Below are positions 3,186-57,320 of a stretch of DNA of 64,000 nt, one piece after another. This stretch comes from Syntrophobacterales bacterium (lineage in GTDB: Bacteria > Desulfobacterota > Desulfobaccia > Desulfobaccales > 0-14-0-80-60-11), in the NCBI GenBank assembly GCA_037388025.1, contig JARRKO010000009.1:25647-89646 (forward strand), written 5' to 3'. The translations under genes and the position numbers were made by a program. Positions within the stretch are counted from its first letter, which is position 1, and every line of letters starts with the position of its first letter. The notes under the pieces are model-generated. The model had not been told where the DNA came from. It was given only the letters and a program-made list of their open reading frames with translations, and ran no database searches.

Positions 3186-3490
3186 GCTCAATGTAGCCGC
3201 AGGCTTCAGCCTGCGTCCGCACAGGTTGAAAACCTGTGCCACCAAAACTTTACATCCTGATATTAATCTAACCGGACGACACAGGGTTTTTGGTCCGCAA
3301 AATTTCGGTGGGCAGTGCCCACCCTACATCTTCTGGTCGGGAGAACAGGCATCTTGCATGTTTTGTTCACAGGCTGGAAGCCTGTGCTCCCGCTTTATTG
3401 TGAGAGCTGCCGTGCCAGTAGCCCAGGCTTCATACCCTGTAATCGATGCAAGAGGCGGGATGCGCTTCACTTTCCCGCCCTACGCACTAC
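3186..3490. repeat. Cluster of GC-rich hairpin modules with GTAG/CTAC heads (REP-like)
   Basis: Hairpins include gcaggcttcagcctgc, gcacaggttgaaaacctgtgccacc (3219-3243), ggtgggcagtgcccaccctaca (3308-3329), cacaggctggaagcctgtgctcccgc (3368-3393) and ggcgggatgcgc..tcccgccctacg. The same modules recur in other intergenic regions of the window. Confidence 0.7.
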
Positions 3491-6399: not shown

Positions 6400-9024
6400 T
6401 TATAGCCTCCCACTTAGGTCGATAACCAGAGGAATTTTAAGACTTACCACTCCTTCCATGACCTGCCGCACCACTTTGGTAGTGGCGTCCAGTTCTTTCT
6501 GGGGTAACTCTAACAATAATTCATCATGAATTTGGAGGAGCATTCGAGCAGACAGGCCGGCCTGGGATAATGCTTCCTCCACTTCCAACATGGCCTTCTT
6601 AATAATGTCCGCGGCTGAACCCTGCAAGGGAGTGTTTACCGCGCTCCTCTCCGCCTCCTGGCGCACCAGCCGGTTGCTGCTGTTAATTTGGGGAAAGTGA
6701 CGGCGGCGACCCAACAAGGTGGTGACCCACCCCCGCTGCCGGGCCTCCTCCAGGGTGTTATCCAGGTAGGCTTTGACCTGGGGATGGCGGGCAAAGTAGC
6801 GCTGGATGAATTCTTGGGAGAGGCGGTTGCCGACTCCCAACTGTTTGGCCAGGCCAAAGGCGCTCATGCCGTAAATAATACCGAAATTGATGACCTTGGC
6901 CTGGCGCCGCATGTCCGGGGAGACCAATTCCGGATGGATGTTAAAAACCGCGGCCGCGGTCTGCCGGTGAATGTCCATGCCCTCCTGGAAGGCCTGCAGG
7001 AGAACTGCATCTTTGGAAAAGTGGGCCAACAGCCGCAACTCCATCTGGGAATAGTCGGCGCTCAGAAAAATGTGTCCCGGGTCGGCTACGAAGGCCTGGC
7101 GCAGCTGCGCCCCCATTTCGCCCCGGATGGGAATGTTTTGAAGGTTGGGGTCCCGGCTGGACAGGCGGCCGGTGGCCGCGGCGGATTGGACAAAGGTGGT
7201 GTGCACCCGTCTGGTGGCCGGATTGATCAGTTTCAGCAGCGCATCCACATAGGTGGCTTTGAGCTTGCCTAAACTGCGGTAGGAGATCACCTTGGCGGCG
7301 ATGGGGGCTTCCTCGGACAGGCTTTGCAAGACCTCCATGTCCGTGGAATAAGCGGTCTTGCCCTTGGTTTTCTTCTGGGGGGTTAGTTTGAGTTTGTCAA
7401 AGAGGATGCGGCCCAGCTGCTGGGGCGATTGAATGAGAAAGGTCTCCCCGGCCTCGGCGTAAATCTCTTGTTCCAGGCGCTGCATTTCGCTTTCCAGTTC
7501 CTGGCCGAAGTGGGTTAGAAAATCTCGGTCCACTCCGATGCCCCGGGCCTCCATGTGGGCCAGCACCGCCAGCAAAGGCAATTCCAGGTCCTCATAGAGG
7601 GGGCTGAGCCCTTCCTGGACCAGTTCCTCCTCGAGGCGGGGCCAGACCTCCAGGATGGCGGCAGCCCGCTGACAGGCATACTGAACCGCCAGGTCCTGGG
7701 GGAGAGCCGGGGGGGCCGTAGGTCGGCCGGCCAGTTCCCGGGAGCCGGGAAGGTTCACCTCCAGGTAGTGCAGGGCCACGTTTTCCAGGGTTTGATCATA
7801 CCGGGCCGGATTGAGGAGATAAGAGGCCAACAAAATGTCCCCTCGGGCCCCGGCCAGTTTCTGACCGAAACGACTGCAAACCTGGAGCGCGGCCTTTAAA
7901 TCGGAGCCCACCTTCATAATGTCGGGGTTCTGGAGCATTGGCGCTAGGGCCTGCCAGATCAGGTCGGGCTTCAGCTCGCCGTCAATGGGGAGATAGGCCC
8001 CGACCCCCGGCGCCCAGGCCAAGGCCAGTCCGGCCACCGGCGCCATGACGGGGTGTTGCTCGCCCAGGAGGAAAAACAGGCTCACAGCCTCGGCGTCCTG
8101 CACGGCCGCGGCCACCTGTTCCAGAGCCGTCTGGTCTTGAACGAGCTGAAAATCTCCGGGCGGGGGCGCATCGAAGCCCAGTTCCTGGGTGAATTTGGTA
8201 AATTCGAGCTCCTGGAACAGGGGGCGCAGGGCCTCCCGGTCCCACGGGCCGGGGCGCAGGTCCTCCAGGTCTACCTGGAGAGGTACCTCATCCTCCAGCA
8301 GCACCAGCCGGTGGCTGAGGCGGGCCTGCTCGGCATGTTCGGCCAGCTTGCTGCGCACCCCTTTTTCTTTAATATCCTCTAGATGAGACAAAAGATTATC
8401 CACGCTGTGGAACCGGGCGATGAGCTTGAGCGCGGTCTTCTCCCCGATACCCGGCACTCCGGGGATATTGTCGCTGGCGTCGCCGGCCAGGGCCTTGACC
8501 TCCACCAATTCCTCCGGGGAAACGCCATATTTTTCCCTGATGGTGGCCGGGTCAAAGCGCACGTCCTTCATGGGGTCCCACATGGCGACCCCCTCCTGGA
8601 CCAGAGGCAGGAGGTCTTTGTCCCCCGACAGGATCACCACTTCAAAGCCCTGGGCGCGAGCCTGCCGCACCAGGGTGGCGATTAGGTCGTCGGCTTCGAA
8701 CCCCTCCATGGCCAGTTGGGGCAGGTTTAAGCCCTGGGTGATTTTCTGGATGTAAGGGAGCTGCAGACCCAGCTCCTCGGGCATGGGGGGCCGGTGGACC
8801 TTGTACTCCGGATACTCCCGGTGTCGGAAGGTGGGGGCCTTGGAGTCGAAAGCCAGGGCCAGATATTGCGGCTGGCGCTCTCGGAGGACCTTGAGGAGCA
8901 TATTGGTGACCCCGAACGCGGCATTGGTGGGAAAGCCCTGGGACGTGGCCAGGCCCCGGATGGCGTGGAAGGCCCGGTAGATGTAGGAACTGAAGTCCAG
9001 GAGATAGAGAACCCTGGAGGGCAT
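6400..9024 (-). CDS. polA: DNA polymerase I
   Basis: 5'-nuclease N-terminus (LLDFSSYIYRAFHA), a 3'-5' exonuclease-like middle, and polymerase motifs (ADYSQMELRLLAH, QIHDELLLE). Start set to ATG 9024 with AGGAGG 10 nt upstream. Confidence 0.95.
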   Translation of the reverse strand: MPSRVLYLLDFSSYIYRAFHAIRGLATSQGFPTNAAFGVTNMLLKVLRERQPQYLALAFDSKAPTFRHREYPEYKVHRPPMPEELGLQLPYIQKITQGLNLPQLAMEGFEADDLIATLVRQARAQGFEVVILSGDKDLLPLVQEGVAMWDPMKDVRFDPATIREKYGVSPEELVEVKALAGDASDNIPGVPGIGEKTALKLIARFHSVDNLLSHLEDIKEKGVRSKLAEHAEQARLSHRLVLLEDEVPLQVDLEDLRPGPWDREALRPLFQELEFTKFTQELGFDAPPPGDFQLVQDQTALEQVAAAVQDAEAVSLFFLLGEQHPVMAPVAGLALAWAPGVGAYLPIDGELKPDLIWQALAPMLQNPDIMKVGSDLKAALQVCSRFGQKLAGARGDILLASYLLNPARYDQTLENVALHYLEVNLPGSRELAGRPTAPPALPQDLAVQYACQRAAAILEVWPRLEEELVQEGLSPLYEDLELPLLAVLAHMEARGIGVDRDFLTHFGQELESEMQRLEQEIYAEAGETFLIQSPQQLGRILFDKLKLTPQKKTKGKTAYSTDMEVLQSLSEEAPIAAKVISYRSLGKLKATYVDALLKLINPATRRVHTTFVQSAAATGRLSSRDPNLQNIPIRGEMGAQLRQAFVADPGHIFLSADYSQMELRLLAHFSKDAVLLQAFQEGMDIHRQTAAAVFNIHPELVSPDMRRQAKVINFGIIYGMSAFGLAKQLGVGNRLSQEFIQRYFARHPQVKAYLDNTLEEARQRGWVTTLLGRRRHFPQINSSNRLVRQEAERSAVNTPLQGSAADIIKKAMLEVEEALSQAGLSARMLLQIHDELLLELPQKELDATTKVVRQVMEGVVSLKIPLVIDLSGRL

Positions 9025-9126: not shown

Positions 9127-9251
9127 CCCAAGGGCTGGAAGCCCGTGCTACCGGGGTCGCGGACCCCCGCCCCCTCTCCCCTAACCCCTTACATAAAACG
9201 GGAGCACAGGCTTCCAGCCTGTGCAGGAACAGGCAGGATATCTGTTCTCCC
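9127..9251. repeat. REP-like hairpin modules
   Basis: agggctggaagcccgtgct, then cgggagcacaggcttccagcctgtg...ctgttctccc (9199-9251). The latter is the reverse-oriented relative of 3339-3393. Confidence 0.65.
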
Positions 9252-10913: not shown

Positions 10914-13900
10914 TCTCGGAAATAGAACACATGCGGATAAATGAAAAAGTTTTTCACCGGCTCCATTTCTAAAGCTGCCATGCCGTGAAATCCCGGCCCC
11001 CAATCACCGTGTTGGTTAACCCCCTGGATCGAGGCCTGGAGAATTATGCTGGGGAGCCGGTAGACCTGACGGTAAAAATCCAGAGTCAGACCGATGGCCT
11101 GATAGGTTTTCGGGCTGAAATAGCTGGCATGTTCCTGGTTGTATTTGGTCAAGTAATAATGAGGCGTCAGACCCAACTGCATACGGGACGTCTTGATGGG
11201 CAGCCAGGTCAAACCCTGATACATGGCAAAGCGGGTGTTGTCATCCGTGAACACAGCCCCGGACACAGTTCCTTGCCAGGTCAGATTGGGGTTGAAGTGA
11301 TGGGTAAAGTTGAATTCCAGCTGGTTCAGCATGATCAACGGTACGTCCCCCAAATTGTTAATTGACTGATACAAACGGGGGAAAAGTGCCGGGTCCACAT
11401 CGTAAAGATCCCGGCGGGCAAAGCGCAAACTGGCATCGGTTTTGAGCCCCAGCGGAAAATCCAAACGGAGGCTGCCCAGCAGGCGGTCATGGTTTTCCTG
11501 TTGCGTGGTTTTAATGATCAGAAATTCGTCAATCAGATGTGGGGGCGGCGGAAACTGATACCATTTGGCTCCCTTCTGGACAATTTCCCGGTCCACCCGC
11601 TTCCAATAACGACGGAAGATAAGTTCACCGCTCAGTTTAAGGCGGTCAGCCAGATGCAGGGGGCCCACGCCCACAGAAACATCGGCCAAACGGACCCGGC
11701 TGCGGTTGGTGGTCACCTGCCCGTCTACCCGATCTAGTTGAGTATTTACCGGACCTTGCTCTTGAGACTTGCTTATCTGGCGGTACCCCCGGTACTCCAC
11801 CGCCAGCTGCATGGGCACGACCTTGGCCACCCAAAAACCCGCCGTGGCCCTCAGGAACCAGCCATAGAGGTGATTGCTGTCCCGAAACCACATGGTTTCC
11901 GGTTGGATCACCGGAATCGCTCCGGGGCTGGGCAACCCCCCATAGACCTCCCGGTCAGGGCGGGAGAATTGCCACGGCCGCATACTTTCTTCGGCGCGAG
12001 ATGCTCCGTGGGCATAGGCAAAGGCCCGGGAGGCCAGTTCGGGCCGCTGGCGTTGCCGCACGTCCTCGAGTTCGTTCAACAGTTCCACGTTTTGGGGGTC
12101 ATCCTGCAGGGCCCGGGCAAAAGCCAGCGTCGCGCCCCCCAGGTTGCCGGTGGCCCGGGCCCGGCGCGCCTCGGCCACCCGGGCCTGCTGTGAGTCGGGG
12201 GAGGTTTTCATAATCTCGGCATAGCAGGCGACGGCCCGCCGGTCGCCCATGCCCTCCAGGATGCGAGCTTTTTCCATGAGAATCTGCTCCCGGGGCAGGG
12301 TACCGGCCAGACCCTCCAACGTCCTCAGGGCTTCCGGGTAGCTTTTCTGGAGACGGCAGGCCTGGACCAGGAGAAGCTGCACCTGGGGGTAATCCGCATG
12401 CTCAGGGGGCACCTTGGCCGCCGCAGCCTTGACCCCTTCATACTGTCCCCTAAGCAAGTAAAGGCGGGCTATTTCCAGGGCGCGGTCCGTGGTGATGGGT
12501 TTGTTGTTGAGGGTGGACAGGACCTTGCCCCAGTCCTTCTGGACCATCTGGCATTGGACCAACAGACTGGCCAAGTGCTGGTCCTGGGGCCATATACTAT
12601 GGGCTCGGCGGTAGTATCTCTCCGCGGCCTTCCGGTCGCCCAACTCCATGGCCAGGTCGGCCAGGGCCAGCATCTCCCCGGGGCTGTCGGGCCAGCGGCG
12701 GCGGTATTGCTTGAGCACGTGGAGAAGATAGTCCAGCCTACCGCCGTGGCGCCCCAGCTTTGAGTTGAAAAAAGCTATGGCGGCCACGTATTCCGGGCTG
12801 TCCACCTTGATGCCGGGAATGCGATAAATCAGCCGGGATAGATCCTGGTAGCGGGACAACTGCGGCAGTAGGTACGAGAGGATCAGCAGGCTGGCATGGT
12901 GGCGCCGATTTTCCCACAGGTTGTCCACCATGAGATCCGTGGCCAACCGGCAAGCCTCCGGGTCCGCCACGTGGCACAAGGCTCGGGCCACCCAGGTGCG
13001 CTCTTCCAGGCTCAGCCGGTCCCGGTCCCATTTGGGGGGGCGCTGCTGGCGGGCCTCCTGCCAGCTCCGGGGCCGCGCCTGGTTTCCCGGAAAACCCAAA
13101 CAGTACAGGCGCAGGGCCCAGTGGGAGGCTTCCTGCCAGTCTTTCCGGGCCAGAGCTGCCTGGATGAAGGCCACCAGCACGGCCCGGCCTTCGGGTTGAT
13201 CCAGGCGGGCGCCGTTCTCCCCTGCCTTCAGACGCCGCAGGATTTCCTCGGCCTCCGTGGCGCGACCCAGGTAGATCAAGACCCGGGCTTTTTCGATGAG
13301 GGCCTCCTGATCACGTGGATCAAGTTTCAGAAAGCGTTCGTATCGATCCAGGGCCCCTTCCAGGTCCCCGGACCACAACAGCAGGCGGGCTTGCTCCTTA
13401 ATGAGCTGCGGCTCCTGGGGCACGGGGCACTCCTGCAGTTCCTGTTTGGCCTCCTCCCAGCGCTTGGCCTTCAAAAGCAAAGTTATGCGACGCAGCCGCA
13501 AACCCACGTCATTGGTACGTTTGGTTAAATCTCCGTAGGCCTCCAGGGCTTCACCCTGGGCCTTGGGCTGGAAGGCCAGGGCCTCGGCCAAAAGCTGCCG
13601 CGTCGTCACGTCATCAGGGTTATTTTCCAGGTAGCGCCGGAAGTAATGGGCCGCCTGACCCCAGTGCTTTTGGTAAAAATGCATCTGGCCCAGAAACAGC
13701 AGCAAGCGGGGATACTTGGGATTGTCCCGCTCCACCGGCTTCAGAATGGCTATGGCGTCCGCGAAGCGCCGCCCATAGGAATAGGTGAGCGCCGCTTCCC
13801 AGCGCAAGTCCCCTTTGATGAGCTGGCGCCGTTTGGCCTCTTCCCACATGGCCGCCGCCTTGGAAAACTGACGTTGGCGGGCATACAGCCGAGCCAGATT

Positions 13901-14932: not shown

Positions 14933-15290
14933 AAACCTGCCTCGGGTCCATGGCCGGCTGCCACTGGGGTTTTTTCAGACCGGCCAGCACCAGGTCCACC
15001 AATACCCAGAAAATAAAGGCGGAGAAGAAACCGTTCAGCACAATGAGATGAGGCGGGGCCCAGCCCAGTTGCAAGGAAAGCAGGGGCAAAATGAGGTGTA
15101 GGGCCACGATGCTCAGTTGAGGCATCAGCAGCAAATAACCGCTGGCCGCGCTAAAGGGGTTCCGGTTATTGACCCGATAGGCCGGTTTGCGGCCCGGAGG
15201 ATAGACCAGGGCCGCCAAGATGGCGGCGGCGTAAACCGGTGAGAGTCCGCAGAGGATCTTGAATTGTTTCAGGGCGTCCAGTACAGCTCC
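14922..15290 (-). CDS. C-terminal transmembrane portion of the GT2 synthase, in a different frame (apparent frameshift)
   Basis: It encodes three hydrophobic helices (LSPVYAAAILAALVY, YLLLMPQLSIVALHLILPLLSL, LIVLNGFFSAFIFWVLVDLVLAGL). There is no ATG/GTG/TTG near where it leaves the synthase frame. Its stop overlaps the next gene's ATG by 11 nt. Confidence 0.5.
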   Translation of the reverse strand, partial: GAVLDALKQFKILCGLSPVYAAAILAALVYPPGRKPAYRVNNRNPFSAASGYLLLMPQLSIVALHLILPLLSLQLGWAPPHLIVLNGFFSAFIFWVLVDLVLAGLKKPQWQPAMDPRQVYGF

Positions 15291-16432
15291 TGGTCCTGAA
15301 AACAGGAATACCCTTCCCAGTAGCCCAACAGGGGTAGAAAATAGAAGGCCGGGAAGATCAGGCCGCTGATGAGGTAATTCACCATGATGAGCAGGAAATG
15401 GAGACGTTGCTCCCAGGAAAGGCCCCGTTTCCCAAGGGGGTTGTCCCAGAAAAACAGCCGCATGGTGTCCAGACACCATTGAAATCGCTGGCGATAAACT
15501 CCGGCCAGATTCAAGGGAGCCAGCCCCCGAGACAGGGCATAGGGGAAATAAATGCCCTTCCAACCATGGCTCAAGAGCTCATAGGAAGTGGTGCTATCCT
15601 CCAAAATGTTCCAGGTGGCAAAACCGCCGATTTCCTCCAAAGCCGCCCGGCGATACAGCACCCCTGAGCCGCAGGAAATCACCGCGTTGGCCCGGTCGTT
15701 GTTGGGCTGGACCACCTCGTAAAAAATTTCATCCCGGTTAAAAAAGGGGTCGCCTTCAGGGAGATGAAAAGACTGTTTGGATTGGACGTAGGCGACGTGG
15801 GGCAAGCGGAAAAAGCCCACCAGCCGCGTGAGGATGTCGGGCGCCGGCACCTGGTCGGCGTCCAGAACCAAAATAAGCTCTCCCTGGCTCAAGCCCAGGC
15901 CGAAGTTGAGATTGCCGCTTTTGGCGTCCCGGCGGGGAGCCCCCGCGGCCACCCGGGAATGATAATGAAAGCCCAGGGTCTGGGCCATGGCGGCCACCTG
16001 GGCCGAACCATAATCATCCAATACATACACCTGGACGGGCTGGTAGATGATCTGGCTCACCGCCCTCAGGGTGGTGTGGATGACCTCCAGAGGCTCGCCG
16101 CAGTAAGTGACCAAAATATCCACTGGCGGGTGGGATTCGAGCTCCAGGCCCTCAGGACGATGATAGCGGGGGGTGCCCAGATCCCAGGCCAGGAAGACCA
16201 GCATGACATAAGCTAGGGTTTCGGCGCCAAAAAAGAGAATGCTCTGGTCATTGGGGGCGCGCCACATCAGGCGGCCCAGCCAGTAAAGATAGAGGGCGCC
16301 CAACAAGAGAGTCAGCCAGGAGAGAGATTGGGCCGCCAAGCGCCGGGGCCGGTCTTCCAGGTCGCGGTAGCGCCGATAGGGAAGGCGGCGGCGGCAATCG
16401 GCCCAAAAGGTGGTAAAAATATTCAGGCCCAT
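15269..16432 (-). CDS. Processive family-2 glycosyltransferase (cellulose synthase/PgaC-like polysaccharide synthase), catalytic part
   Basis: N-terminal TMs, then motifs LDDYGS, VLDADQVP (DxD), CGSGVLYRR and QRFQW (QxxRW). Start set to ATG 16432 with AGGAGGGG 8 nt upstream. Confidence 0.8.
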   Translation of the reverse strand: MGLNIFTTFWADCRRRLPYRRYRDLEDRPRRLAAQSLSWLTLLLGALYLYWLGRLMWRAPNDQSILFFGAETLAYVMLVFLAWDLGTPRYHRPEGLELESHPPVDILVTYCGEPLEVIHTTLRAVSQIIYQPVQVYVLDDYGSAQVAAMAQTLGFHYHSRVAAGAPRRDAKSGNLNFGLGLSQGELILVLDADQVPAPDILTRLVGFFRLPHVAYVQSKQSFHLPEGDPFFNRDEIFYEVVQPNNDRANAVISCGSGVLYRRAALEEIGGFATWNILEDSTTSYELLSHGWKGIYFPYALSRGLAPLNLAGVYRQRFQWCLDTMRLFFWDNPLGKRGLSWEQRLHFLLIMVNYLISGLIFPAFYFLPLLGYWEGYSCFQDQELYWTP

Positions 16433-16791
16433 CCTACCATCCCCTCCTGGGAGTTCACGGGCCGGAAAAGTCGGTTGGCCGAAACCGAACGAGACATGAC
16501 CTTTCCCTTCATGGAATGTGGCCAAATACCAACAGGGCTACCAGACTTGAGCAAGGAGTAAGGTTATACCTGATTACTAAGTAAGTTTTTAACCATTGAT
16601 ATACAGGGTTTTTTCTTAAGGAATACTATTTAGTTGTCCAAAAATATCTTTTTGTCAACAAAAAAATTGCAAAATAATTTTTTAACTAGGTACCCTGAGA
16701 CAAACGTCTTGTTTTCCGGCAATTTGAGTGTGGCCTACCGTTACCTCTGGATAACTGGTTGAGTTTGTTCGGACTCCGTCCCTTTTCTCCC

Positions 16792-16819
16792 TTGACAGCC
16801 CCGACGGAATTACTAAAAT
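16792..16819 (+). promoter_or_regulatory. Sigma-70-type promoter for the riboswitch-tonB transcript
   Basis: TTGACA (16792-16797), 16-nt spacer, TAAAAT (16814-16819). The predicted TSS lies just before riboswitch stem P1. Confidence 0.5.
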
Positions 16820-16827
16820 AAAATTGT

Positions 16828-16987
16828 TTACAGGTGCTGCAAGCTTAATAGGGAAGCCGGTGCGAAGCCGGCACGGTCCCGCCGCTGTAACCGGGGACGA
16901 ACCCTGCCACAAGCCACTCTCACCAGCGGTTTTGGGGGGAAGGCGCAGGGCGTAGAAGGATCCGGGAGTCAGAAGACCTGCCTGTAA
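16828..16987 (+). promoter_or_regulatory. Cobalamin (B12) riboswitch aptamer
   Basis: P1 is ttacagg (16828-16834) / cctgtaa (16981-16987). Conserved core: aatagggaagccggtgcgaagccggcacggtcccgccgctgtaa, gccactc...gggaaggcg, and the B12 box gagtcagaagacctgcc. Confidence 0.85.
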
Positions 16988-17066
16988 GCCGGCCTAAACC
17001 CGCGCGGTCCGGGGTGTCGGCCCCCGGGGTCTTAAGCCCCGGAGCAGGGATGAAGAAGACGGGTGC

Positions 17067-17992: not shown

Positions 17993-18349
17993 CCTGGAGC
18001 TCGGAACGGCTGTTCCAGCCCAGCTTTTCTCAACGATCTGTCAAATTCCCATATCATGGTTGTCATGAGGCCTGCTGGTGCTTGATTGTGAAAGTCAGCG
18101 TCCGATGATTAACAGGGTCCTTCCGAAGTAGGAGTGACTAAAGTCCCCCTTTGAAAAAGGGGGATTTCAAGAGATTATTCCAAATCCACCCCAACCCCAA
18201 AGCTGGCTTAGGTCATAATCCCTGGTTTTTCAGGTGCCAGGTATACGTGAACTTTAAGGATCTTCCGTAGATGGGCCTGCCACCATGAATCTCAAGACAA
18301 AAAAATCTTTTCCTTTTCAAATAGATTTTTTCGTTTAAGGGAAAGCTTT

Positions 18350-18500
18350 GGTGGCACAGGTGTCCTCACCTGTGCATCTGGAATTTTTGGAACCGGGGAA
18401 TGAGGGATTGCCGTTATAGGGCGTGCCGTGCACGCCAGGTGGCGTGGGGGATAGGGTTTGGGAGAGGGGGCAGGGGTTTGCGACCCCTGGTCCCCCCTCC
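18350..18500. repeat. REP-like hairpin modules
   Basis: ggtggcacaggtgtcctcacctgtgc (18350-18375), ttatagggcgtgccgtgcacgccaggtggcg (18414-18444) and gggcaggggtttgcgacccctg. Near-identical modules occur at 40067-40092 and 40161-40209. Confidence 0.7.
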
Positions 18501-21939: not shown

Positions 21940-23106
21940 TCATTGCTGGCGTCGTTTTTGGAACTGGCGCACCTGGTACATAAAGGCTTCCAGGCGGGTC
22001 AGAGTGTGGGTCTGCTCCTGGCCGTCATAAGCCAGAGCCAGGAAGGGAATGTTGTCGTGCTCCTCCCGGAATCGGTTGAACAGGGAATTCACCACCGTGC
22101 CCGGCATGCAGGTAAAGGGCATGATGTTCACCAGCCCGGAAACACCCTTCTGCACGAAGTCCCGGGACTTGCCGATACTCAGGATGGCTTCGCCTTCAAA
22201 AGAATCATGGAGATACCCCTGAGCCAGAGCCAGGGTTTCCGGAATGGCGGGTTCGTGGAGGTTTTTAATGCAACCCTCGAAGAGATGAATAAGGTGGTGT
22301 TCGTCCTTTCTCTGCACCCATTCCTTAATGAGGATTTGCAAAAGATGACGGTAGCGCCGGAAGGTCCGGGCCTGGCGCTTGGAGGTGAAGTTGACGTAAA
22401 GCAGCCACTCCGAAATAGGCGGCAACCAGGCTTCGGCCCCCAGAGCCTCGATATGCCGCACCGTGTTCTCATTGGAAAACCGGTTGGAGCGTACATAAAT
22501 CTCGCCCACCACCCCCACGATGGGCTTGTCACCACGGCCATTTAAGGCCACGTCATCAAAGGTGCTCCGGGCCTCTCGAAGTACCCTGTCCAAGTCCCCG
22601 CGCTCCCGCAGGGTTTCATGCACCTTATGGAGGAAATGCCAGTAAACTTCGTCGGCGCTGCCCTGGTGGCGCTCATAGGCACGGGTTTCCAGGAGCTTTT
22701 TCTCCAAAAGGTCAATGGCCACAACGCCCCGCCAGGCGATGCGGTCAAAGTCTTCGCCCACCATGCCGATTTCATCATACATATCGGCGCTCTGGTCCGG
22801 GGCGAAAACCGGCACTTCCTGATAGCCCAGTTCATCCAGGACTAGGCGATGGTAGCGGTGATATTGACCGAAGCGGCAGGGACCATCCCCTGAAGGCATG
22901 AAGAAGGCGCTCTTGTCCGGAATAAAATCGGGCCGCCGGACCATTTTAGCCAGGTCCCCGGTGGTGAGGATAAGAGGATAGCATTCCTTTCCGGAGGTGA
23001 GGCGACGGCCCAGCTCCAGGGTTTCCTCATCCGACTCGGGCAGGGACTCCGCCTCCGCGCCGCAGGCCTCGAACGCGGCCACCAAAGCCAACGCATGGTC
23101 GGTCAT
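21940..23106 (-). CDS. 2-hydroxyacyl-CoA dehydratase-like (HgdB/BcrC-family) domain protein; probably the detached C-terminal third of the upstream activase gene
   Basis: 388 aa (GKECYPLILTTGDL, GDGPCRFGQY, IVGVVGEIYVRSN, IMPFTCMPG). Its ATG lies directly after the inserted inverted repeat. Confidence 0.7.
   Translation of the reverse strand: MTDHALALVAAFEACGAEAESLPESDEETLELGRRLTSGKECYPLILTTGDLAKMVRRPDFIPDKSAFFMPSGDGPCRFGQYHRYHRLVLDELGYQEVPVFAPDQSADMYDEIGMVGEDFDRIAWRGVVAIDLLEKKLLETRAYERHQGSADEVYWHFLHKVHETLRERGDLDRVLREARSTFDDVALNGRGDKPIVGVVGEIYVRSNRFSNENTVRHIEALGAEAWLPPISEWLLYVNFTSKRQARTFRRYRHLLQILIKEWVQRKDEHHLIHLFEGCIKNLHEPAIPETLALAQGYLHDSFEGEAILSIGKSRDFVQKGVSGLVNIMPFTCMPGTVVNSLFNRFREEHDNIPFLALAYDGQEQTHTLTRLEAFMYQVRQFQKRRQQ
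22407..22517. repeat. Source arm of a perfect inverted repeat (inside the coding sequence)
   Basis: Checked base by base: the reverse complement of 22408-22516 equals 23107-23215 (109/109). The match extends one base on each side, giving 111 bp. Confidence 0.95.
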
Positions 23107-23216
23107 GGGGGTGGTGGGCGAGATTTATGTACGCTCCAACCGGTTTTCCAATGAGAACACGGTGCGGCATATCGAGGCTCTGGGGGCCGAAGCCTGGTTG
23201 CCGCCTATTTCGGAGT
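23106..23216. repeat. Inserted inverted copy of 22407-22517, at the junction of two ORFs
   Basis: Identical to the reverse complement of the internal coding segment. Flanked, in gene orientation, by a direct ATGA...ATGA. It supplies the premature TAG of the 947-aa ORF. Confidence 0.95.
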
Positions 23217-26048
23217 CATTTTTTCCTTGAAAAAGTGCTGGATAAAGGAGTCGGGGCCGCAGCCGAAATTGGTGATGTATACCCCGAAAAGTCGCGGGTC
23301 CTTGCGGATGAGCTCCGCCGCGCCCAGGATTTTCTGACCGAAGCGCCAGTACATGGGCTTGATCTCGAACAGCTCCTCCGCCTGGTCCACCGGCAAAAAG
23401 TCCATGGGAATTGCCAGGACACCCAGTTGCCTGAGTTTGCGGTGGAGGTTCAGGTTCATACCCGGATCGAAGGCATTATAAGGCCGGCCCACCAGCACCA
23501 TGAGGCGTTCATCCGGTGCCAGGGAGTCCAGGATTTCCCGACCCCGGTCCGCCAGGCGCTGATAATAAGCCTGCTGGGCTTCTTCGGCCCGGCGCGCCGC
23601 CCGCCCCACCAGGAAGGGGGAAACCCCCAACTGCCCGGCCAGTTCCCGCAAATTCCGACGCAGGACTTTGGGTCCCCGGCCGAAATAGAGGACGGCTGAG
23701 AGCAGCTTGGCCCCGTATGGGCTGAAATCGATGGCAGGGGGTACCGTATAGGCCAAGGTTTGGGCCAAGGGGCACACCACCCCCCGCTGGATTTCGGGGT
23801 GGGGATGGGGCATATCAATGATACTGGGAAGAAAGATGTTTTTGACCCCGGCTTCCAGCAAATCCAGGATGTGGCCGTGGGCCACCTTGATGGGGAAGCA
23901 AGGCTCCGCGGCCAGGCACTCCACCCCCTGGTGGATCACCTTGTTGTTGGTCTTCTGGGAATACACCACCGAGAAGCCCAATTCCTCGAAAAAGGCACGG
24001 AAGAACGGCATGAGTTCCTGGAAGAACATGGTACGGGGGATGCCGATGATGCCGCGTTTGCCCTCCGGCACTTCTTCGGGTTCGGGTCCGTAAAGCCAAG
24101 CCTCCCGTTCCTGGAGGAGATCCGGCAAATCTACCGGCGCCGCGGCCCGGCCCACTTCATACTTTTCGCAGCGGCTGCCGTAAAACAAGGGCTTTTCCCC
24201 GGCAATCTCCACCCGGCGAATCTCACAGGTGTTGGCGCACCCCTGGCACTCGAAGGAAGTGATTTGATATTCCCGTTCCGCTAGGTCAAAGCTTTTGAAG
24301 CTGGATTCCTCCCAGGTGCGTTCCCGCAAAGCCAGCAAAGCCGCGCCGATGGCCCCGGTGACGTCGTGGTGGGGTGGCACCGTGATTTGCTTCCCGAGCA
24401 CCTTTTCAAAGGCCGCCACAATGCCCCGGTTGGCCGCCGTGGCCCCCTGGTAGAAAATGGTGTCGCCGATGGGACGATCTTCCGCCACTTTGTTCAAGTA
24501 GTTATGCACTATGGAATATGACAGGCCGGCCACCAGGTCTTCCTTGACGGCCCCCCGCTGCTGGTGGTGCACGATATCGGATTCCATGAACACGGTGCAG
24601 CGCTCGCCCATGCGCACCGGATTTTTGGCTTCCAGGGCCAGGCGGCCGAATTCCTCCTTGATGGAAATGCCCAACTTTTCGGCCTGTTCCTCCAGGTAGG
24701 AACCCGTTCCCGCGGCGCACACTTTGTTCATCATAAAATCCACAATCGCGCCGTTTTTCAGACTGATAAACTTGGAGTCCTGGCCGCCGATCTCCAAAAT
24801 GGTATCCACCGCGGGGTTGATGGCCGCAGCCGCGGTGGCTTGGGCGGTGATTTCATTCCTGACCACATCGGCCCCGATAAAATCCCCGGTGAGATAACGC
24901 CCGGAGCCGGTAGTGGCCGCGCCCATGATTTTCACCCGCCCGGCCAGTTTCTTCCCCACCCGGCGCAGGCCCTCGGTGATGGCTTCCAGGGGCCGCCCCG
25001 CGGTCATGAGATATTCCCGGGCCAGGACTTTCATGTCCCGGTCGATAACCACCACGTTAGTGCTGATGGAGCCCACGTCGACGCCAAGGTAGCCCTCGGT
25101 GACCTCCCCTTCGGGGAGCTCCACGACTTCGTAATGCTCCGGTCCCAAAACTGGCGGCGGGCTGAGAGGCAGCAGTCTCCGGGTGGGCTCCGCCTCCCGG
25201 GCCAGGTGGGCCTTTAAAGGCTCGAGGTTCAGGGTGAACTGCTCGGAAACCTGCTCCCGCGCGGTCAGCACAGCCCCCACGGCTCCCAGGGCGCAAAAAT
25301 GAGGCGGAATAATCAGGGTGTCATCGTCCAGATCCAGGACCTCCCGAAAGGCCCGGCGCACGCCTAAATTGTGGGCCACGCCCCCCTGGAAGGCCACCGG
25401 CGGGGTCACTTCCTTCCCCTTGGCGATGTTGCTTTTTAGATTTCGGGCCATGGCCAGGCACAACCCGAAAATAATCTCGTAATCCGGGGTGGCCCCCTGT
25501 TGCAGGTGGATCATGTCCGTCTTGGCAAAGACGCTGCAGCGGCCGGCGATGCGGGGTGGGGTGGTGGACTTGAGGGCCAACTCGCTGAAGCCCTCGATGG
25601 AATACCCCAGGCGGTGGGCTTGCTGGTCCAGAAAAGACCCGGTGCCCGCGGCGCACATGGTGTTCATGGCGAAATCCCGGATAACCAAGTCACCCTCTTC
25701 TTGATCCACCATGATGAGCTTGGCGTCTTCCCCGCCCATATCGATAATGGCCCGGGTTTCGGGATGGAAGTGATACGTGCCCCGGGCCAGGGCAATGACT
25801 TCGTTGACAAAGGTGCCGTCCAAAACTTCCGCCAGCGCCTTGCCTCCCATGCCGGTGAACGCGGCCAGACGGCAGCGGTCCAGGGGAAACTGTGGGGGCA
25901 GCTCCTCCAGGAGCACTAGGGCCACCCGGTAGGGCTCCCCCAGGTGGCGGCGGTACTCTTCCCGGAGCACCTCCCCTTGCTCATTCATGACTACCAGCTT
26001 AACGCTCACCGAGCCTATATCCAGGCCCACGTCGAATTGTGCTTGCAT
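23205..26048 (-). CDS. CoA-substrate-specific enzyme activase-like protein (two BcrAD/BadFG ATPase modules plus a DUF2229-like region), truncated by the insertion
   Basis: Two ASKHA ATPase starts (GLDIGSVSVKLVV, GVDVGSISTNVVVI), CAAGTGSFLD/CAAGTGSYLE, and IGGQDSK. The last three codons (TPK-stop) read into the inserted repeat. Confidence 0.85.
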   Translation of the reverse strand: MQAQFDVGLDIGSVSVKLVVMNEQGEVLREEYRRHLGEPYRVALVLLEELPPQFPLDRCRLAAFTGMGGKALAEVLDGTFVNEVIALARGTYHFHPETRAIIDMGGEDAKLIMVDQEEGDLVIRDFAMNTMCAAGTGSFLDQQAHRLGYSIEGFSELALKSTTPPRIAGRCSVFAKTDMIHLQQGATPDYEIIFGLCLAMARNLKSNIAKGKEVTPPVAFQGGVAHNLGVRRAFREVLDLDDDTLIIPPHFCALGAVGAVLTAREQVSEQFTLNLEPLKAHLAREAEPTRRLLPLSPPPVLGPEHYEVVELPEGEVTEGYLGVDVGSISTNVVVIDRDMKVLAREYLMTAGRPLEAITEGLRRVGKKLAGRVKIMGAATTGSGRYLTGDFIGADVVRNEITAQATAAAAINPAVDTILEIGGQDSKFISLKNGAIVDFMMNKVCAAGTGSYLEEQAEKLGISIKEEFGRLALEAKNPVRMGERCTVFMESDIVHHQQRGAVKEDLVAGLSYSIVHNYLNKVAEDRPIGDTIFYQGATAANRGIVAAFEKVLGKQITVPPHHDVTGAIGAALLALRERTWEESSFKSFDLAEREYQITSFECQGCANTCEIRRVEIAGEKPLFYGSRCEKYEVGRAAAPVDLPDLLQEREAWLYGPEPEEVPEGKRGIIGIPRTMFFQELMPFFRAFFEELGFSVVYSQKTNNKVIHQGVECLAAEPCFPIKVAHGHILDLLEAGVKNIFLPSIIDMPHPHPEIQRGVVCPLAQTLAYTVPPAIDFSPYGAKLLSAVLYFGRGPKVLRRNLRELAGQLGVSPFLVGRAARRAEEAQQAYYQRLADRGREILDSLAPDERLMVLVGRPYNAFDPGMNLNLHRKLRQLGVLAIPMDFLPVDQAEELFEIKPMYWRFGQKILGAAELIRKDPRLFGVYITNFGCGPDSFIQHFFKEKMTPK

Positions 26049-26207
26049 GGCTGCTGTTCCTCGATGTTCCGGAATACGATAGTTGGTGCGATATGTTCGG
26101 TGCTCGGCAGGTGGTCAGGCCGATTGTTGACGGGCCTCCCGGCCGCGAGTCTTCACCCCTCCTGGTGACAGCCGTTTAAGCCTTTATGAACAAGAAAACG
26201 ATGCCAA

Positions 26208-26229
26208 TGTAGGGTGGGCACCGCCCACC
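26208..26229. repeat. REP-like hairpin (gtagggtgggca..gcccacc family)
   Basis: tgtagggtgggcaccgcccacc. This is the reverse-oriented relative of 3308-3329. Confidence 0.6.
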
Positions 26230-26290
26230 AATTATTCTTTAAAACCGCTTAGACAAGAGATAAAGTCAATTATCTCAGATAGTTGTTGCC

Positions 26291-35056: not shown

Positions 35057-35438
35057 ATTTTTCCTCCTCCTTTTTGAAGTTAATCCTCGGCTTTCCACTT
35101 TATTCAGGACTGATGGAAAAAGCCGCTTGTGCAATAAATTTACTCTAAGTATAAGGACCTCTGAGGTAAAGTCAACTTAATTTATCAGTGACCGAAGAAA
35201 AATCTTACTCTACTGTTAAACCAATGTTAAACAAAAAGGAAACCCTCCGGAGAATTTCACTCTAACCCGGATTATCCGTCATATTGCCAAGAATTTGGTG
35301 GCACAGGCTTTCCAGCCCGTGTAAAAAACACTCTGTGTTTTTATGCTTTTTATTTTACTGTTATATTTCAATAAGTTGGCGTATATTTTGAAAAGTTCAT
35401 GAAGCAAAAAGGCTAATACCCACGCCGCCGATTTTTTC

Positions 35439-40014: not shown

Positions 40015-40600
40015 TGAGGGCAGTCACTCATGAGCCAGTAGCTCTCTCAAAACCATGAAAAGACCTGGTGGCACAGGTGGACTCACCTGTGCTTGGTCGT
40101 GGTAGGGGCTGTCCCCCGACTGAAGGGTAACTTCTCGCAGGATCAACTCATGGTGCGCAGTTATAGGGCGTGCCGTGCACACCAGGCGGCGCCACGGGCC
40201 GCCCTATAAAAAACAGGGCGGGTTTGAAACCCGCCCCTACGTGTTTAGTGCCGCAGGGCCGTAGGACGATAAAGCGCAGCGCATCCCGCCTTTTACATTT
40301 TTTCAAGCGGTCAGTCATGAGCCGGCGGCTCTCCCAAAATCATTAATTCCAAGTTGCCATCAAACAGGTAGGGGCGGGGTCACCCCGCCCGAAAAAAAGG
40401 TTGCCTCACCAATGCCGGGCGGGGAGACCCCGCCCCTACGGGACCACGTTTCAAATTTTACAGGTTTGATGGCAACTTGGTATAAAAGGTTGGTAGGGCA
40501 GGCGTGCCGCCTGCCATCATGGTACGAAAAGCGCATCCTATATTCACTTTACACCCGAACTTTGAACTTTGAACTTATCCGGGCAGCACTCGGTGCTTGT
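40015..40600. repeat. ~590-bp mosaic of REP-like hairpin modules and short direct/inverted repeats
   Basis: At least 8 GTAG/CTAC-headed hairpins (40067-40092, 40161-40209, 40216-40240, 40369-40392, 40416-40440, 40492-40515). Direct repeat 40021-40056 vs 40309-40343. 17-bp inverted repeats at 40349-40365 / 40464-40480. Tandem ctttgaac at 40557-40576. Confidence 0.8.
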
Positions 40601-46701: not shown

Positions 46702-47403
46702 TTAAAACGGCCAGACGTGATCAAGTATGCGCTGGCCCCATCCCACTCGCTGCTTGTCGGACACCACCCCGGCGCCGGAAATCATCACCCGCGCGTCCGC
46801 CACTTTGGTGGAGGGCACCATATTATTGCGGTCGATGTCATCAGGCCGGACTATGCCGGTTAGGGTCACTATTTCGGTCTCATTATTGATGCGCATGTTC
46901 CGGCGTCCCTGGATGGCGAGGTTCTTATTGGGAAGCACCTGGATCACCCGGGCCGTCAGATAGGAGGTGAAACTGCTTTGCCGTTCCGTCTTACCCTCAC
47001 CTTGCGCAACGTTGCCCACCGTGCCTTCTAAAGCGGTGTCCACAACCACATCTTTGTTGGTAAAGGCTTTCATGGGAAAGCTGAGGCCTAGCAGGGAGGT
47101 AATACCTACTTTGACACCGGAATCCCTACTGGTATTGGTATTGGCGATTTCACTGGCCTTGGAGGTTTCCGTGATGCTGATGGTGACCAGATCGCCCACA
47201 CTGGACGCCCGGTTATCCGCTGACAGCCCGTTGGTTTGAGTGCCGTTCCACAACGAGCCTTCCTGAACCACGGCCGTAGGCGGCAAGGGTTGGCTGTCTA
47301 TCGGCACCTCCGGAGCATATTTGGCCATGGACAGATGACCGCAGCCGGCCAGGACCAGAACTAACCACGCCGGAAGCCAAACGCGACAGGAATACCTTTT
47401 CAT
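46702..47403 (-). CDS. flgH: Flagellar L-ring lipoprotein FlgH
   Basis: Lipobox VLAGC; GDLVTISITE; LTGIVRPDDI. Confidence 0.9.
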   Translation of the reverse strand: MKRYSCRVWLPAWLVLVLAGCGHLSMAKYAPEVPIDSQPLPPTAVVQEGSLWNGTQTNGLSADNRASSVGDLVTISITETSKASEIANTNTSRDSGVKVGITSLLGLSFPMKAFTNKDVVVDTALEGTVGNVAQGEGKTERQSSFTSYLTARVIQVLPNKNLAIQGRRNMRINNETEIVTLTGIVRPDDIDRNNMVPSTKVADARVMISGAGVVSDKQRVGWGQRILDHVWPF

Positions 47404-48080
47404 ATCTGCACCTTAACGGTCTTGGCGTTGACCACCTTCCCCTGAAACTCCTTTTTGCTTTTCGGGTTTTGCAGGCGGATGGATTTCCCTAAATATCCCT
47501 GTTCCTGGGCCACCCCTTTGGTGGAAATTTCCAGGCCGTCCTGATCCAGGACCACAGTCACCTCATCACCCCGTTTAATAAGAGGTTGGTTGCTCAGATG
47601 CCGGCTGGTGACGATCTCCTGGGGGCCCACACTGCGGGAAAGGATGTGGCCCAGCACCTGCTCGGCAGAGGTGAAAAAATCCTCCACGTTCAATCCCGTC
47701 ACCTCCCGGGGCAAGAGCTGGATATCCTTCGGGCCGATGGTTTCCTGAGCTCGCAGGGGCCGCGTGGCGCAGACCACGGAGCGCTTCAGCCGCACCATCC
47801 CGTTCACCTTGAGGCGCTTGAGGGGCTGGCTTTGATATAAAACCACTATTTCCAGGGTGACCTCACCCAAGAGTTTGTCATTGCGGGGCGGCAAAGGCTT
47901 GAGGGTCACCTGGGGATCCGGGAGGATAACCGGCTCTTTCAGGGGGAAAACCTCGATGTGCAGGTTGTTGGGCGGATAGGGATTGTGCTGTTGGACATAG
48001 CGGCAAAACGCGGCCGCCACCTCATCCCCTTTTAACAACACCCCGGTCTGCCGCACCTGAATGGCCGCGGGCAGGACCAC
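47400..48080 (-). CDS. flgA: Flagellar P-ring assembly protein FlgA (main part, lacks a signal peptide in this frame)
   Basis: SAF/FlgA-like C-terminal pattern (IKRGDEVTVVLDQDGLEISTKGVAQEQGYLGKSIRLQNPKSKKEFQGKVV). The ORF begins at a GTG with no export signal. Confidence 0.7.
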   Translation of the reverse strand: MVLPAAIQVRQTGVLLKGDEVAAAFCRYVQQHNPYPPNNLHIEVFPLKEPVILPDPQVTLKPLPPRNDKLLGEVTLEIVVLYQSQPLKRLKVNGMVRLKRSVVCATRPLRAQETIGPKDIQLLPREVTGLNVEDFFTSAEQVLGHILSRSVGPQEIVTSRHLSNQPLIKRGDEVTVVLDQDGLEISTKGVAQEQGYLGKSIRLQNPKSKKEFQGKVVNAKTVKVQI

Positions 48081-48231
48081 CTTCGAAAAAATCCGCCAGG
48101 TGAGCCAGGGTGATATATTCCCCGGCCACCTGGGCCTCGCTCTTAAAGGTAAGAGCGCCGTGGGCCAGTTCCGCTTTGAGGAGAAGTCCCAGCAGAATCA
48201 GCCAGATAAGACCCATGCGCCGGCTGCGCAT
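48022..48231 (-). CDS. flgA: Probable FlgA N-terminal fragment (signal peptide) in a different frame
   Basis: MRSRRMGLIWLILLGLLLKAELAHG is a signal peptide, followed by ...GEYITLAHLADFFEG. The frame diverges at or after the A6 run at 48086-48091. Confidence 0.45.
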   Translation of the reverse strand: MRSRRMGLIWLILLGLLLKAELAHGALTFKSEAQVAGEYITLAHLADFFEGGPARGHSGAADRGVVKRG

Positions 48232-53000: not shown

Positions 53001-53462
53001 CCCGAAGAGTTGGTTCCCGAGCCGGAAATTCGCCTGCCGGTAGCGGCCTATCTCCCCGAAGACTACGTGCCGGACATTCAGCAGCGCCTGGCCCTGTACC
53101 GGCGACTCTCCGGCCGCCTGAGCCCCGCCATGATTGATGAACTGGAGGAGGAGTTGCAGGACCGCTTCGGACCCATCCCGGTGGAAGGACAGGAGCTGCT
53201 CTGGGTGGTGCGCACCAAGGAACGGCTCCGGCAAATGGGGGTCAGCCGCCTGGAGGTTCAAAACGGCTTTGTCGTTTTTCAGTTGGCGGTACCGGAACGC
53301 CTCGACCTGGCCCGTCTTTTGGCCATCCTAAAAAAGCGGCCGGAAAAATGGCGGCTGAGCCCCGACCAGACCCTGCGGCTGAGGCTTCCGGAGGACGGGC
53401 CTTCCTGGAGCGGTCTGGAAAACTGCTTGAAAGAAATGGAAACATTTGTTAAGGGGGAATGA
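50013..53462 (+). CDS. mfd: Transcription-repair coupling factor Mfd
   Basis: 1149 aa. CarD/RNAP-interaction segment (GDFVVHVDHGIGIY) and helicase motifs (GDVGYGKTEVALRAAF, IIDEEQRFG, TATPIPRT). Confidence 0.95.
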   Translation: MEYGKFSSFRWQDVAEALGRGDRDMHLFGLNPVAGAYVLSRLGHTLRCPILLITPNGASAEVFLKDLTFFDAAVSEPPGPWPLLGGFPAHEILTFRPLGLDAEVSAARLAGAYLALTAREPFFLVAPAVALREKLPPQNRLQDAWTYLVIGEEIPRQEFLQRLQQGGYERRPLVEDRGEFSVRGGIIDLFPPLYDRPVRLEFWGDVLESLRFFDPASQRSQNSLEDLVVLPASEVILNDAAREQALQGRSKRRDPRFWHHVQEGIHFSGIERHLAEFYPETQTLWDYLPPETLIVEWDPLNLAQSLEKLAADAAGEPSEWLDNVPWEKRRAPFATLSCHVLPLGETEGPGRFVIQTEKNEGLAQELAEAGGEDGRLVPALAQRLADWQDHGNHVVLVSLNQHRAKRLAQLLAGEGLSCEVNPLPDWEAPRLVEITVGEVSGGFRLLASGLIVLTEDEALGYRPEGRRRRETHPPQYLTSLGDLQEGDFVVHVDHGIGIYRGLVKLEAGAGVNDFLELAYQNGDRLFLPVDRLHLVQKYLGVEGVAPRVDRLGGKAWERSKAKVKKAVEKIARELVELYAARRVLPGHTFTPPDPTFREFEATFPFEETRDQLQAIQDVLEDMRTDKPMDRLICGDVGYGKTEVALRAAFKAAMDGFQVALLVPTTVLAEQHYDTFARRLAPYPLEVRTLSRFKPPAEQKRILSDLAQGKVDIVIGTHRLLSRDLTFRNLGLLIIDEEQRFGVKQKEKLKEWRRTVDVLTLTATPIPRTLQLSLTGLRELSLINTPPENRRSIRTYLCKPEKAVIQAAIRRELARQGQIFFVHNRVRNLGTWVRYVQEMVPEARVAMAHGQMPERQLEQVMVRFWRGEIDVLVCTAIIEAGLDIPAANTIVINRAHTMGLAQLYQLRGRVGRSQAQAYAYLLVPEEAALPSEAQKRLKALMEFTELGSGFKIALHDLQIRGAGNLLGQAQSGHLAEVGYELYLQLLEEAIRHFKGEAPEELVPEPEIRLPVAAYLPEDYVPDIQQRLALYRRLSGRLSPAMIDELEEELQDRFGPIPVEGQELLWVVRTKERLRQMGVSRLEVQNGFVVFQLAVPERLDLARLLAILKKRPEKWRLSPDQTLRLRLPEDGPSWSGLENCLKEMETFVKGE

Positions 53463-53473
53463 GAGGAAAAGTT

Positions 53474-54328
53474 ATGTCCGCAAGAAGTAAGCGCTGGGGG
53501 AAAATAGTATTTCTCCTGGGAGTTTGGTTATGCTTTTTCTGGTCCGCCGCAGCCGCCAAAGTGGTGGAACGTATCGTGGCGGTGGTCAATGACGAGGTCA
53601 TCAGTCAGTCCGAAGTGGACCAAATGGCCAAGGCCATTGAATCCCAGCCCGGTGCGAAACTGCCTCCCGGCAGCGGCAAAAAATTGGAGCGGCGACTCCT
53701 GGACGCTCTCATCATGCAGAAGTTGGCCAAGGCGGAGGCCAAACGTCGGGGTATCACCGTTTCCGACAAGGAAGTGGAGAAGGCCTTGGAACAGTTCAAG
53801 AAACGGAACGGCATCCAGGATGACGAAACCTTAAGCCGGATGTTGGCCAAAAACGGCATGACTCTCAAAAGCTTTAAGCAACAATTGGCCGATCAGATGA
53901 CCCAGGAACGCCTGTTGGCCGTGGTGGCGGGGTCCAAGGTAGTGGTGACCGACAACGAGGTGCGCCAGTTCTATGAACAGGAATATCCCAAGACCAGCGG
54001 CAAGATGCTCCATTTGAGAATGTTGAATATGCCTTTGCCTGCGGGTGCCACCGAGACTCAGAGACTGGGATTTGTGGCCGAGCGGGATCTGGATCCTGAA
54101 CTGGCCCAATTCCTCTCTAAAGTCAAACCCGGGGAAACAGCCCCCGTCGAGACCCTGCAAGGCTTTCGCTTGGTGGAGGTGGTGGCCCGCCGGGAAGGCC
54201 GAGCTCGCTCCTTCGAAGATGTGGCCCCGGAAATCCGCGCCTTCTTGCAGCGCCGGGAGATGGAAAAAACCTTTCAAGACTGGATTAAGAGCCAGAAGGA
54301 CAGAGCTCACATCAAAATCATGATGTAG
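53474..54328 (+). CDS. SurA-like periplasmic chaperone / parvulin-type PPIase-related protein
   Basis: Signal peptide, SurA N-domain (VERIVAVVNDEVISQSEVD) and a short parvulin-like C-terminal segment. Confidence 0.65.
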   Translation: MSARSKRWGKIVFLLGVWLCFFWSAAAAKVVERIVAVVNDEVISQSEVDQMAKAIESQPGAKLPPGSGKKLERRLLDALIMQKLAKAEAKRRGITVSDKEVEKALEQFKKRNGIQDDETLSRMLAKNGMTLKSFKQQLADQMTQERLLAVVAGSKVVVTDNEVRQFYEQEYPKTSGKMLHLRMLNMPLPAGATETQRLGFVAERDLDPELAQFLSKVKPGETAPVETLQGFRLVEVVARREGRARSFEDVAPEIRAFLQRREMEKTFQDWIKSQKDRAHIKIMM

Positions 54329-57074: not shown

Positions 57075-57205
57075 GCTCTTTCCCCCCGGCCAGATGAAGC
57101 ATTCAGGTAAGATTTTTGCATAGTATTAATAAGTGCAAGGAAAGGGAACCGATAGCGTGCACCCAACGTTCCCTAACGACACCTCCGCTGAGCTTCTAAT
57201 ATTAA

Positions 57206-57320
57206 GCGGGAGCACAGGCTTCCAACCTGTGCCCAGCCCGCCTAAAGAGATTAACCGACCCTGATAACGAACTTTTCGAACCAGCGCACCTTATAATCTT
57301 TGAACCTTGAACTTTGAACC
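57206..57320. repeat. REP-like hairpin plus tandem ctttgaac repeats
   Basis: gcgggagcacaggcttccaacctgtg (57206-57231), same family as 3368-3393 and 9199-9223. ctttgaaccttgaactttgaacc (57298-57320), related to 40557-40576. Confidence 0.65.

Follow-up and report, generated by a model that had tools for sequence, protein, structure and literature searches.

The disruption of an activase/reductase fusion gene in the window, which is the whole 64-kb stretch of DNA analysed here, is probably an artefact of MAG reconstruction, a local assembly or gap-closure error, and the organism most likely has an intact gene. Judged from sequence comparisons, this reading is given a probability of roughly 0.65. 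A tract about one read long, with its source about 590 bp downstream, would have been placed as a reverse complement over a poorly resolved stretch, possibly seeded by chimeric reads, and would thereby have taken the place of 186 bp in a normal activase/reductase fusion gene that encodes 1393 aa. The two open reading frames (ORFs) and the 111-bp inverted repeat that result from this arrangement most likely have no biological role.

As deposited, the locus contains two arms, 22407-22517 and 23106-23216, which base-by-base comparison in the window identifies as exact reverse complements (111/111), so that the first-pass annotation was accurate in its coordinates and in its description of an exact inverted copy within the gene. 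The first mismatch after the 111 nt stands at 22518 and is followed by two matches, and a repeat finder accordingly returns 114 nt at 99%. The repeat cannot be put down to chance, because no second inverted repeat in the 64-kb window exceeds 39 nt. The source arm (22407-22517, minus strand) is native coding sequence of the fusion gene (GVVGEIYVRSNRFSNENTVRHIEALGAEAWLPPISE) and is found with the same sequence and in a colinear position in two intact same-strain contigs (L005 and L016). The 588-bp spacer between the arms (22518-23105, minus strand) is likewise native coding sequence in its normal orientation (MTDHALALV...GDKPIV), colinear with and identical to these two contigs. The inverted copy of the source arm (23106-23216, minus strand), on the other hand, sits where 186 bp of native sequence belongs. 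It fills the gap between the 947-aa and 388-aa ORFs and brings the premature TAG (+ strand, 23205-23207), both as previously claimed.

The truncated 947-aa ORF (23205-26048, minus strand; NCBI MEJ2091259.1) carries two BcrAD_BadFG ATPase domains and DUF2229. The conserved block at the C-terminus of its reductase-like module is missing, and the ORF ends in ...HFFKEKMTPK with its TAG stop codon within the second arm. The 388-aa ORF (21940-23106, minus strand; NCBI MEJ2091258.1) corresponds to residues 1006-1393 of the intact protein, which is its last module, and begins with MTDHALALV... directly past the inverted arm. No Shine-Dalgarno sequence was found ahead of its ATG, and RNA folding prediction places this ATG at the base of a 111-bp stem with a minimum free energy of -495 kcal/mol (z = -16 against shuffled sequences). 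Otherwise, both ORFs are undamaged; they lie on a contig of 103,010 bp and have locus tags of the series P8X65_*.

The intact gene is 4182 bp long and encodes a single polypeptide of 1393 aa. When a reconstructed protein of 1331 aa was used as the query of a protein search, more than 100 relatives of 1390-1411 aa were retrieved, and the best local alignment of most of these relatives ends at 71% of the query, which is exactly the junction. The nearest intact proteins read ...HFFKEKM-(62 aa)-MTDHALALV..., and in the same strain the missing 62 aa start with QGKPFLEIEIDEHSADVGAITRLEAFLDSLKNV and end with KIFLPP. DNA alignments to the intact alleles agree with this, as the window is devoid of 186 bp of native sequence, CAGGGG...CTGCCTCCC (ends CAGGGGAAACC...TTTTTCTGCCTCCC), and has the inverted tract of about 111 nt in its place. 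The lesion is accordingly no insertion but a deletion whose gap is filled by the inverted tract.

Several claims of the first-pass annotation have to be read in this light. That the gene is broken was borne out, and close relatives encode one polypeptide of 1390-1393 aa at this point, not two separate genes, the arrangement that had been named as refuting. By contrast, the inverted copy does not split an otherwise complete gene, since it replaces 62 aa of conserved coding sequence. Taking out 113 bp in silico fuses the ORFs in frame to give 1331 aa, but this does not restore the gene; the in-frame KEK-M-TDH join is a coincidence, because two distinct native Met codons lie 62 codons apart. The colinearity with homologues expected through this join fails in the alignment, in which the 62 aa are absent from the joined protein. 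Finally, the ATGA...ATGA bracket is no target-site duplication; the two motifs are separate native sites, Met944 and Met1006, at a distance of 186 bp.

The lost segment includes the block KPxLEIEIDEHSxDxGxxTRLEAFLDSL with about 25 invariant residues. In 14 homologues, down to 62% identity, G946, K947, P948, L950, E951, I952, E953, I954, D955, E956, H957 and S958 are invariant, as are T965, R966, L967, E968, A969, F970, L971, D972, S973 and L974. With the loss of this invariant block, the allele as written is therefore null. The activase ATPase domains of the protein are recognised twice each by Pfam PF01869 and TIGR00241 and match the 2-hydroxyacyl-CoA dehydratase activators of PDB entries 4eht and 1hux; DUF2229 covers residues 668-884, and PF06050 is precomputed in most homologues. 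The relatives bear only the NCBI name “acyl-CoA dehydratase activase”. In size and layout, with two activase ATPases followed by two reductase/dehydratase-like modules, the intact gene resembles the single-gene plasmalogen synthase plsA, which is 4.25-4.3 kb long and arranged as Act1-Act2-Red1-Red2 (PMC12838417), a comparison of architecture based on the description of PlsA which implies neither PlsA/PlsR orthology nor a plasmalogen function here.

The strain itself provides the reference for the intact allele. Native sequence is present in five independent same-strain assemblies (two from JGI, one from ENA, one from Logan and one NCBI MAG) at 99.9-100% nucleotide identity and with an identical protein, each judged over the part of the locus that it covers. 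A 90.8-kb contig of JGI 3300057030 (L005) has the native allele, with the 186 bp at its positions 12834-13019, ENA ERZ27284291 (L017) has both native junctions, 182 nt apart, and the Logan assembly of SRR13768071 (L016) combines a native right junction with window-type SNPs and has no duplication. The left side is native in JGI 3300057004 (L013), and the NCBI MAG GCA_037387945.1 (L004) is native as well, matching the window with 100% identity along the 2865 bp that lie upstream of the junction. Among the assemblies examined, the variant right junction is confined to the window and one sibling contig, JARRKN010000014.1 of GCA_037388145.1; it gave 0 matches in 241 M JGI metagenome records and the GTDB representative genomes, and no JGI, ENA or Logan assembly that was examined has the variant allele. 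Look-ups for exact copies of the two ORFs of the window retrieved no DNA record. A 388-aa protein from JGI (P0125, locus L003) was considered as an independent split and rejected, as it lies at a contig end with native sequence upstream. Strain mixing could account for broken contigs and mosaics of SNPs close to the site (L004 versus L005; the ends of L003, L013 and L016) but was rejected as the sole cause, since it cannot account for the inverted copy.

The two assemblies that share the variant agree at one junction and disagree at the other. At the right, gene-proximal junction (23106-23109) the microhomology is 4 nt long, CCCA when read in gene orientation, and the junction reads ...CCCACCACCCCCA/TGACCGACC (the slash marking the join) in the same orientation. 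Its native counterpart is ...CTGCCTCCCA/TGACC (...CTCCCA/TGACC), and the inverted strand would continue as ...CCCCCA/CGATGG. This junction is identical in the sibling contig. The left junction (23216-23217), AAAAAATG/ACTCCG (in longer form AAAAAATG/ACTCCGAAATAGG), is blunt, with no microhomology found at the window's join, and is unique to the window. The sibling retains 25 nt of native sequence and has the left join ...GGAAATCG/GCGGCAACC (in longer form ...CTGGAAATCG/GCGGCAACC), with 1 nt of microhomology and the near-homology GAAAT(C/A)G.

Apart from this locus, the sibling contig differs from the window by one 2-nt substitution in 15.5 kb. Its exact repeat measures 100 nt versus 111 nt in the window, and it has an extra 24-bp tandem duplication, GGGGGTGGTGGGCGAGATTTATGT twice over, whose position coincides exactly with the inner edge of the source arm. 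The sibling ORFs accordingly measure 978 aa and 396 aa. If the lesion had been inherited by descent, both MAGs would have the same version, so the difference between the two versions counts against an inherited mutation; the other same-strain assemblies are intact. The repeat lengths of 111 and 100 nt are a possible hint of a k-mer or read-length signature. Over its last 1.1 kb, the sibling contig also follows neither the window nor the synteny of a 92%-identical relative (L001).

The locus is not the only one in this contig and series to be affected. In the window, a 128-bp frameshifting deletion splits the 319-aa flgA gene into pieces of 69 aa and 226 aa, and FlgA is intact in the JGI and ENA assemblies (L006 and L008). 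A surA-like gene has a 99-bp deletion relative to the JGI same-strain contig, and a glycosyltransferase gene has a 67-bp deletion relative to the Logan same-strain contig and L001. These lesions are located at 48091/48092, about 54062 and about 15279 of the window. At the same spot of the glycosyltransferase gene, the deletion in the sibling MAG is a different one, of 59 bp, and in a third MAG of the series 158 bp of the leader of the activase/reductase gene are missing. None of the 128-, 99-, 67-, 59- and 158-bp deletions is present in the JGI, ENA and Logan same-strain assemblies. Each of the three deletions of the window ends at or includes a T8 run, and these other lesions are deletions flanked by the microhomologies GGA, GTCT and TA. 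Over 21 kb, the window and the JGI same-strain contig differ by 7 mismatches but by 2 large deletions. Two unrelated loci with differing boundaries in sibling MAGs, both intact elsewhere, together with this high ratio of structural changes to SNPs, therefore point towards project-specific local assembly errors.

The ratio of structural changes to SNPs is too high for real divergence and points to an assembly error, an explanation which was already among the options listed in the first-pass annotation as an “assembly chimera” and is the one favoured by the evidence. Local errors which are backed by no read are common in metagenome assemblies, with 13 found in one genome of 1.13 Mb, and the documented types include duplicated overlaps at joins (Chen et al. 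2020, PMC7111523). The present case resembles these errors in being confined to certain assemblies, in the differences between siblings at the same site, in sharing its contig with further local lesions of about 60-190 bp, and in the 24-bp duplicated overlap of the sibling, but the published errors (PMC7111523) do not include a reverse-complement replacement from about 590 bp away. On the same sequence comparisons, the junctions would be expected to lack read support. Several points stand against an assembly error. A de Bruijn-graph assembler should not make up junction k-mers, and the pair of junctions, with CCCA at one, has the look of a true double template switch. The right junction is identical in two assemblies, and the assemblies from other samples may represent other sub-populations.

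Template switching is known from quasipalindromes and from complex indels of the MMBIR/FoSTeS type, and one rival, which we regard as doubtful, is that a sub-population underwent a real loss-of-function mutation very recently, through MMBIR/FoSTeS or a snap-back templated inverted insertion. In such a process, a 3' end ...CATGGG at a stalled fork or resected break would snap back onto CCCA about 590 nt behind, copy about 100-111 nt of its own strand and be rejoined upstream with the deletion of 161-186 bp; the resulting inverted repeat would be unstable and give rise to secondary variants. As in known template-switch insertions, the copy is the exact reverse complement of a nearby sequence, is accompanied by a deletion and has the 4-nt microhomology at its right junction. 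Two assemblies with the same right junction would also fit a real mutation, as would the otherwise undamaged ORFs, which suit a recent event, and the 24-bp duplication of the sibling at the stem base, a place at which a polymerase would be expected to stall. However, by the standard of bacterial quasipalindrome events, both the copy (100-111 nt) and its distance from the source (about 590 nt) are large, the left junction is blunt and shows no microhomology, and the event is here a candidate drawn from assemblies. A difficulty for a real mutation lies in the near-clonal state of the two MAGs: with 2 nt of difference in 15.5 kb, their non-identical versions and different left junctions would require at least two to three structural events with almost no point divergence. 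The same pattern, one site with different boundaries, recurs at the unrelated glycosyltransferase gene, the three other lesions of the contig are missing from the same-strain assemblies, and the allele itself was found in no examined assembly from JGI, ENA or Logan. A real lesion would serve as a clean example, from nature, of a large bacterial snap-back templated insertion, of modest interest and without regulatory meaning.

Chimeric molecules could also have been made in vitro, by template switching during whole-genome or PCR amplification, and then been assembled faithfully, which is considered unlikely. Lasken and Stockwell are said to have found in 2007 that chimeras from multiple displacement amplification (MDA) are mostly inverted, with partners nearby and short microhomology. 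The inverted partner at only about 590 bp, the microhomology and the accompanying, intervening deletion are the points of likeness with MDA and library chimeras, of which those from library preparation are documented to contain inverted repeats (PMC10908179); the microhomologies GGA, GTCT and TA at the other lesions of the contig would fit as well. Such chimeras are usually of low frequency and have a single junction, whereas here two junctions are required inside a 103-kb contig. A single chimera is normally rare at any one site and would be outcompeted by the native path during assembly, and it would be hard for random chimeras to hit the same sites in two assemblies.

Less probable still is an in vivo hotspot in a near-clonal population in nature, at which CCCA at the G-rich edge GGGGGTGGTGGG would repeatedly prime inverted synthesis and thereby create at least two independent knock-out alleles of the PlsA-like gene beside the intact one. 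If this were true, the other lesions of the contig would be real microhomology-mediated deletions in a rearrangement-prone lineage.

A functional on/off switch, in which the 588 bp between the arms invert or form a cruciform, is essentially excluded, and the related proposal of a natural split into subunits after the manner of plsA/plsR is as improbable. The perfect 111-bp inverted repeat around 588 bp recalls invertons of the fim/hin type and shufflons, where inverted repeats surround a segment of a few hundred bp. A split would find a precedent in the benzoyl-CoA reductase/2-hydroxyacyl-CoA dehydratase-like (BCR/HAD-like) family, which is known as one gene in some bacteria and as two in others, with plsA and plsR separate in Clostridium perfringens (PMC12838417), and the 388-aa ORF does start at a native Met at a domain boundary. 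Yet the arms copy the gene's own coding sequence, and inversion of the spacer, which had been proposed as a deliberate on/off structure, cannot restore the gene, since the missing 186 bp with their roughly 25 invariant residues would not be brought back. A second orientation of 22518-23105 was not found, the segment being native in every contig that covers the spacer, and no invertase, integrase or other recombinase gene is present among the neighbours (radical SAM, TetR, flavodoxin-like, RACo, HhH-GPD, a Zn-ribbon membrane protein and PriA). The downstream ATG, devoid of a Shine-Dalgarno sequence, would in addition be buried in the predicted 111-bp stem. The arrangement is not conserved, and because the same-strain alleles are intact, the switch and split readings are effectively refuted. 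A mobile element with a target-site duplication was rejected, as the insert is the gene's own sequence and the ATGA sites are native, and so was a diversity-generating retroelement or retro-copy, as the arms are inverted and 111/111 identical and no reverse transcriptase gene is found among the neighbours.

With a local assembly error as the preferred explanation, the consequences concern the way in which this genome is read. MEJ2091259.1 (947 aa) and MEJ2091258.1 (388 aa, annotated as “hypothetical protein”) are most likely pieces of one 1393-aa gene and should not be taken as a natural split or as a pseudogene; the database records are probably wrong, and the same caution applies to their counterparts of 978 aa and 396 aa in GCA_037388145.1. 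The contig apparently has about one lesion of 60-190 bp per 10-15 kb, and other “broken” genes in this MAG merit the same scepticism.

Relative to L006, a JGI contig of the same strain, the surA-like peptidyl-prolyl isomerase gene of the window (53459-54328, plus strand) carries an in-frame deletion of 99 bp at about 54062-54065, with the junction reading CCCAG|TCTCTGAG. The gene in L006 encodes 317 aa and the deletion maps there to 2400-2493, with a T8 run lying inside the lost segment. A frameshifting deletion of 128 bp at 48091/48092 splits flgA into pieces of 69 aa and 226 aa (ORFs at 48022-48231 and 47400-48080, minus strand), and its junction reads GGCGGA|TTTTTTCGAAGG. The 319-aa FlgA is whole in L006, in which the missing bases occupy 8468-8595, and in the ENA contig L008; here a T8 run stands at the end of the lost segment. 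The family-2 glycosyltransferase gene (15269-16525, minus strand) lacks 67 bp at about 15279 when compared with the same-strain Logan contig L011, which encodes 525 aa, and with L001, an ENA contig from a 92%-identical relative. The lost segment ends in CCTTTTTTTTCAAAA, and the sibling MAG GCA_037388145.1 has another deletion, of 59 bp, at the same site (contig L010, about 3290).

A cobalamin riboswitch (RF00174) lies at 16815-16999 on the plus strand, flanked by this glycosyltransferase gene and a TonB-like gene; this full-length match of 119 bits is the only one in the whole window to exceed the Rfam gathering score. Short intergenic repeats with palindromes are dispersed in both orientations at 18342-18444, 35289-35322, 40059-40191, 3368-3398, 9188-9224 and 57196-57232. 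They form two families that look like REP elements, exemplified by GGTGGCACAGGTG...CACCTGTGC and GGGAGCACAGGCTTCCAGCCTGTGC. Contig L002 of the sibling MAG parts from the window directly past the priA stop codon (about 18533), at a point adjoining REP-like elements, and its last 1.1 kb (15553-16665) enters a GGDEF gene. Either the end of this contig is chimeric or the region has been rearranged; the relative L001 backs the gene order of the window.

The 243-bp 5' leader of the activase/reductase-like fusion gene contains a GGTGGGCGGTGCCCACC hairpin and has no Rfam match. In another sibling MAG, GCA_037387945.1 (L004, about 4577), 158 bp of this leader are gone, which are kept in the window (26082-26239) and in contigs L001, L002, L005 and L014.

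Within the fusion gene, SNPs between otherwise identical same-strain assemblies bunch at the site of the 186-bp native segment. Three fall within 30 nt directly past the right junction, the edge of the inverted copy (window 23077-23092; L004 7638-7653), and two within the 186-bp segment itself (L004 versus the JGI contig L005). At the clustered positions, L004 shares its alleles with the relative L001. Contigs L003, L013 and L016 likewise terminate within this segment. Together, the SNP cluster and the contig ends suggest that strain mixing or local recombination breaks assemblies at this site.
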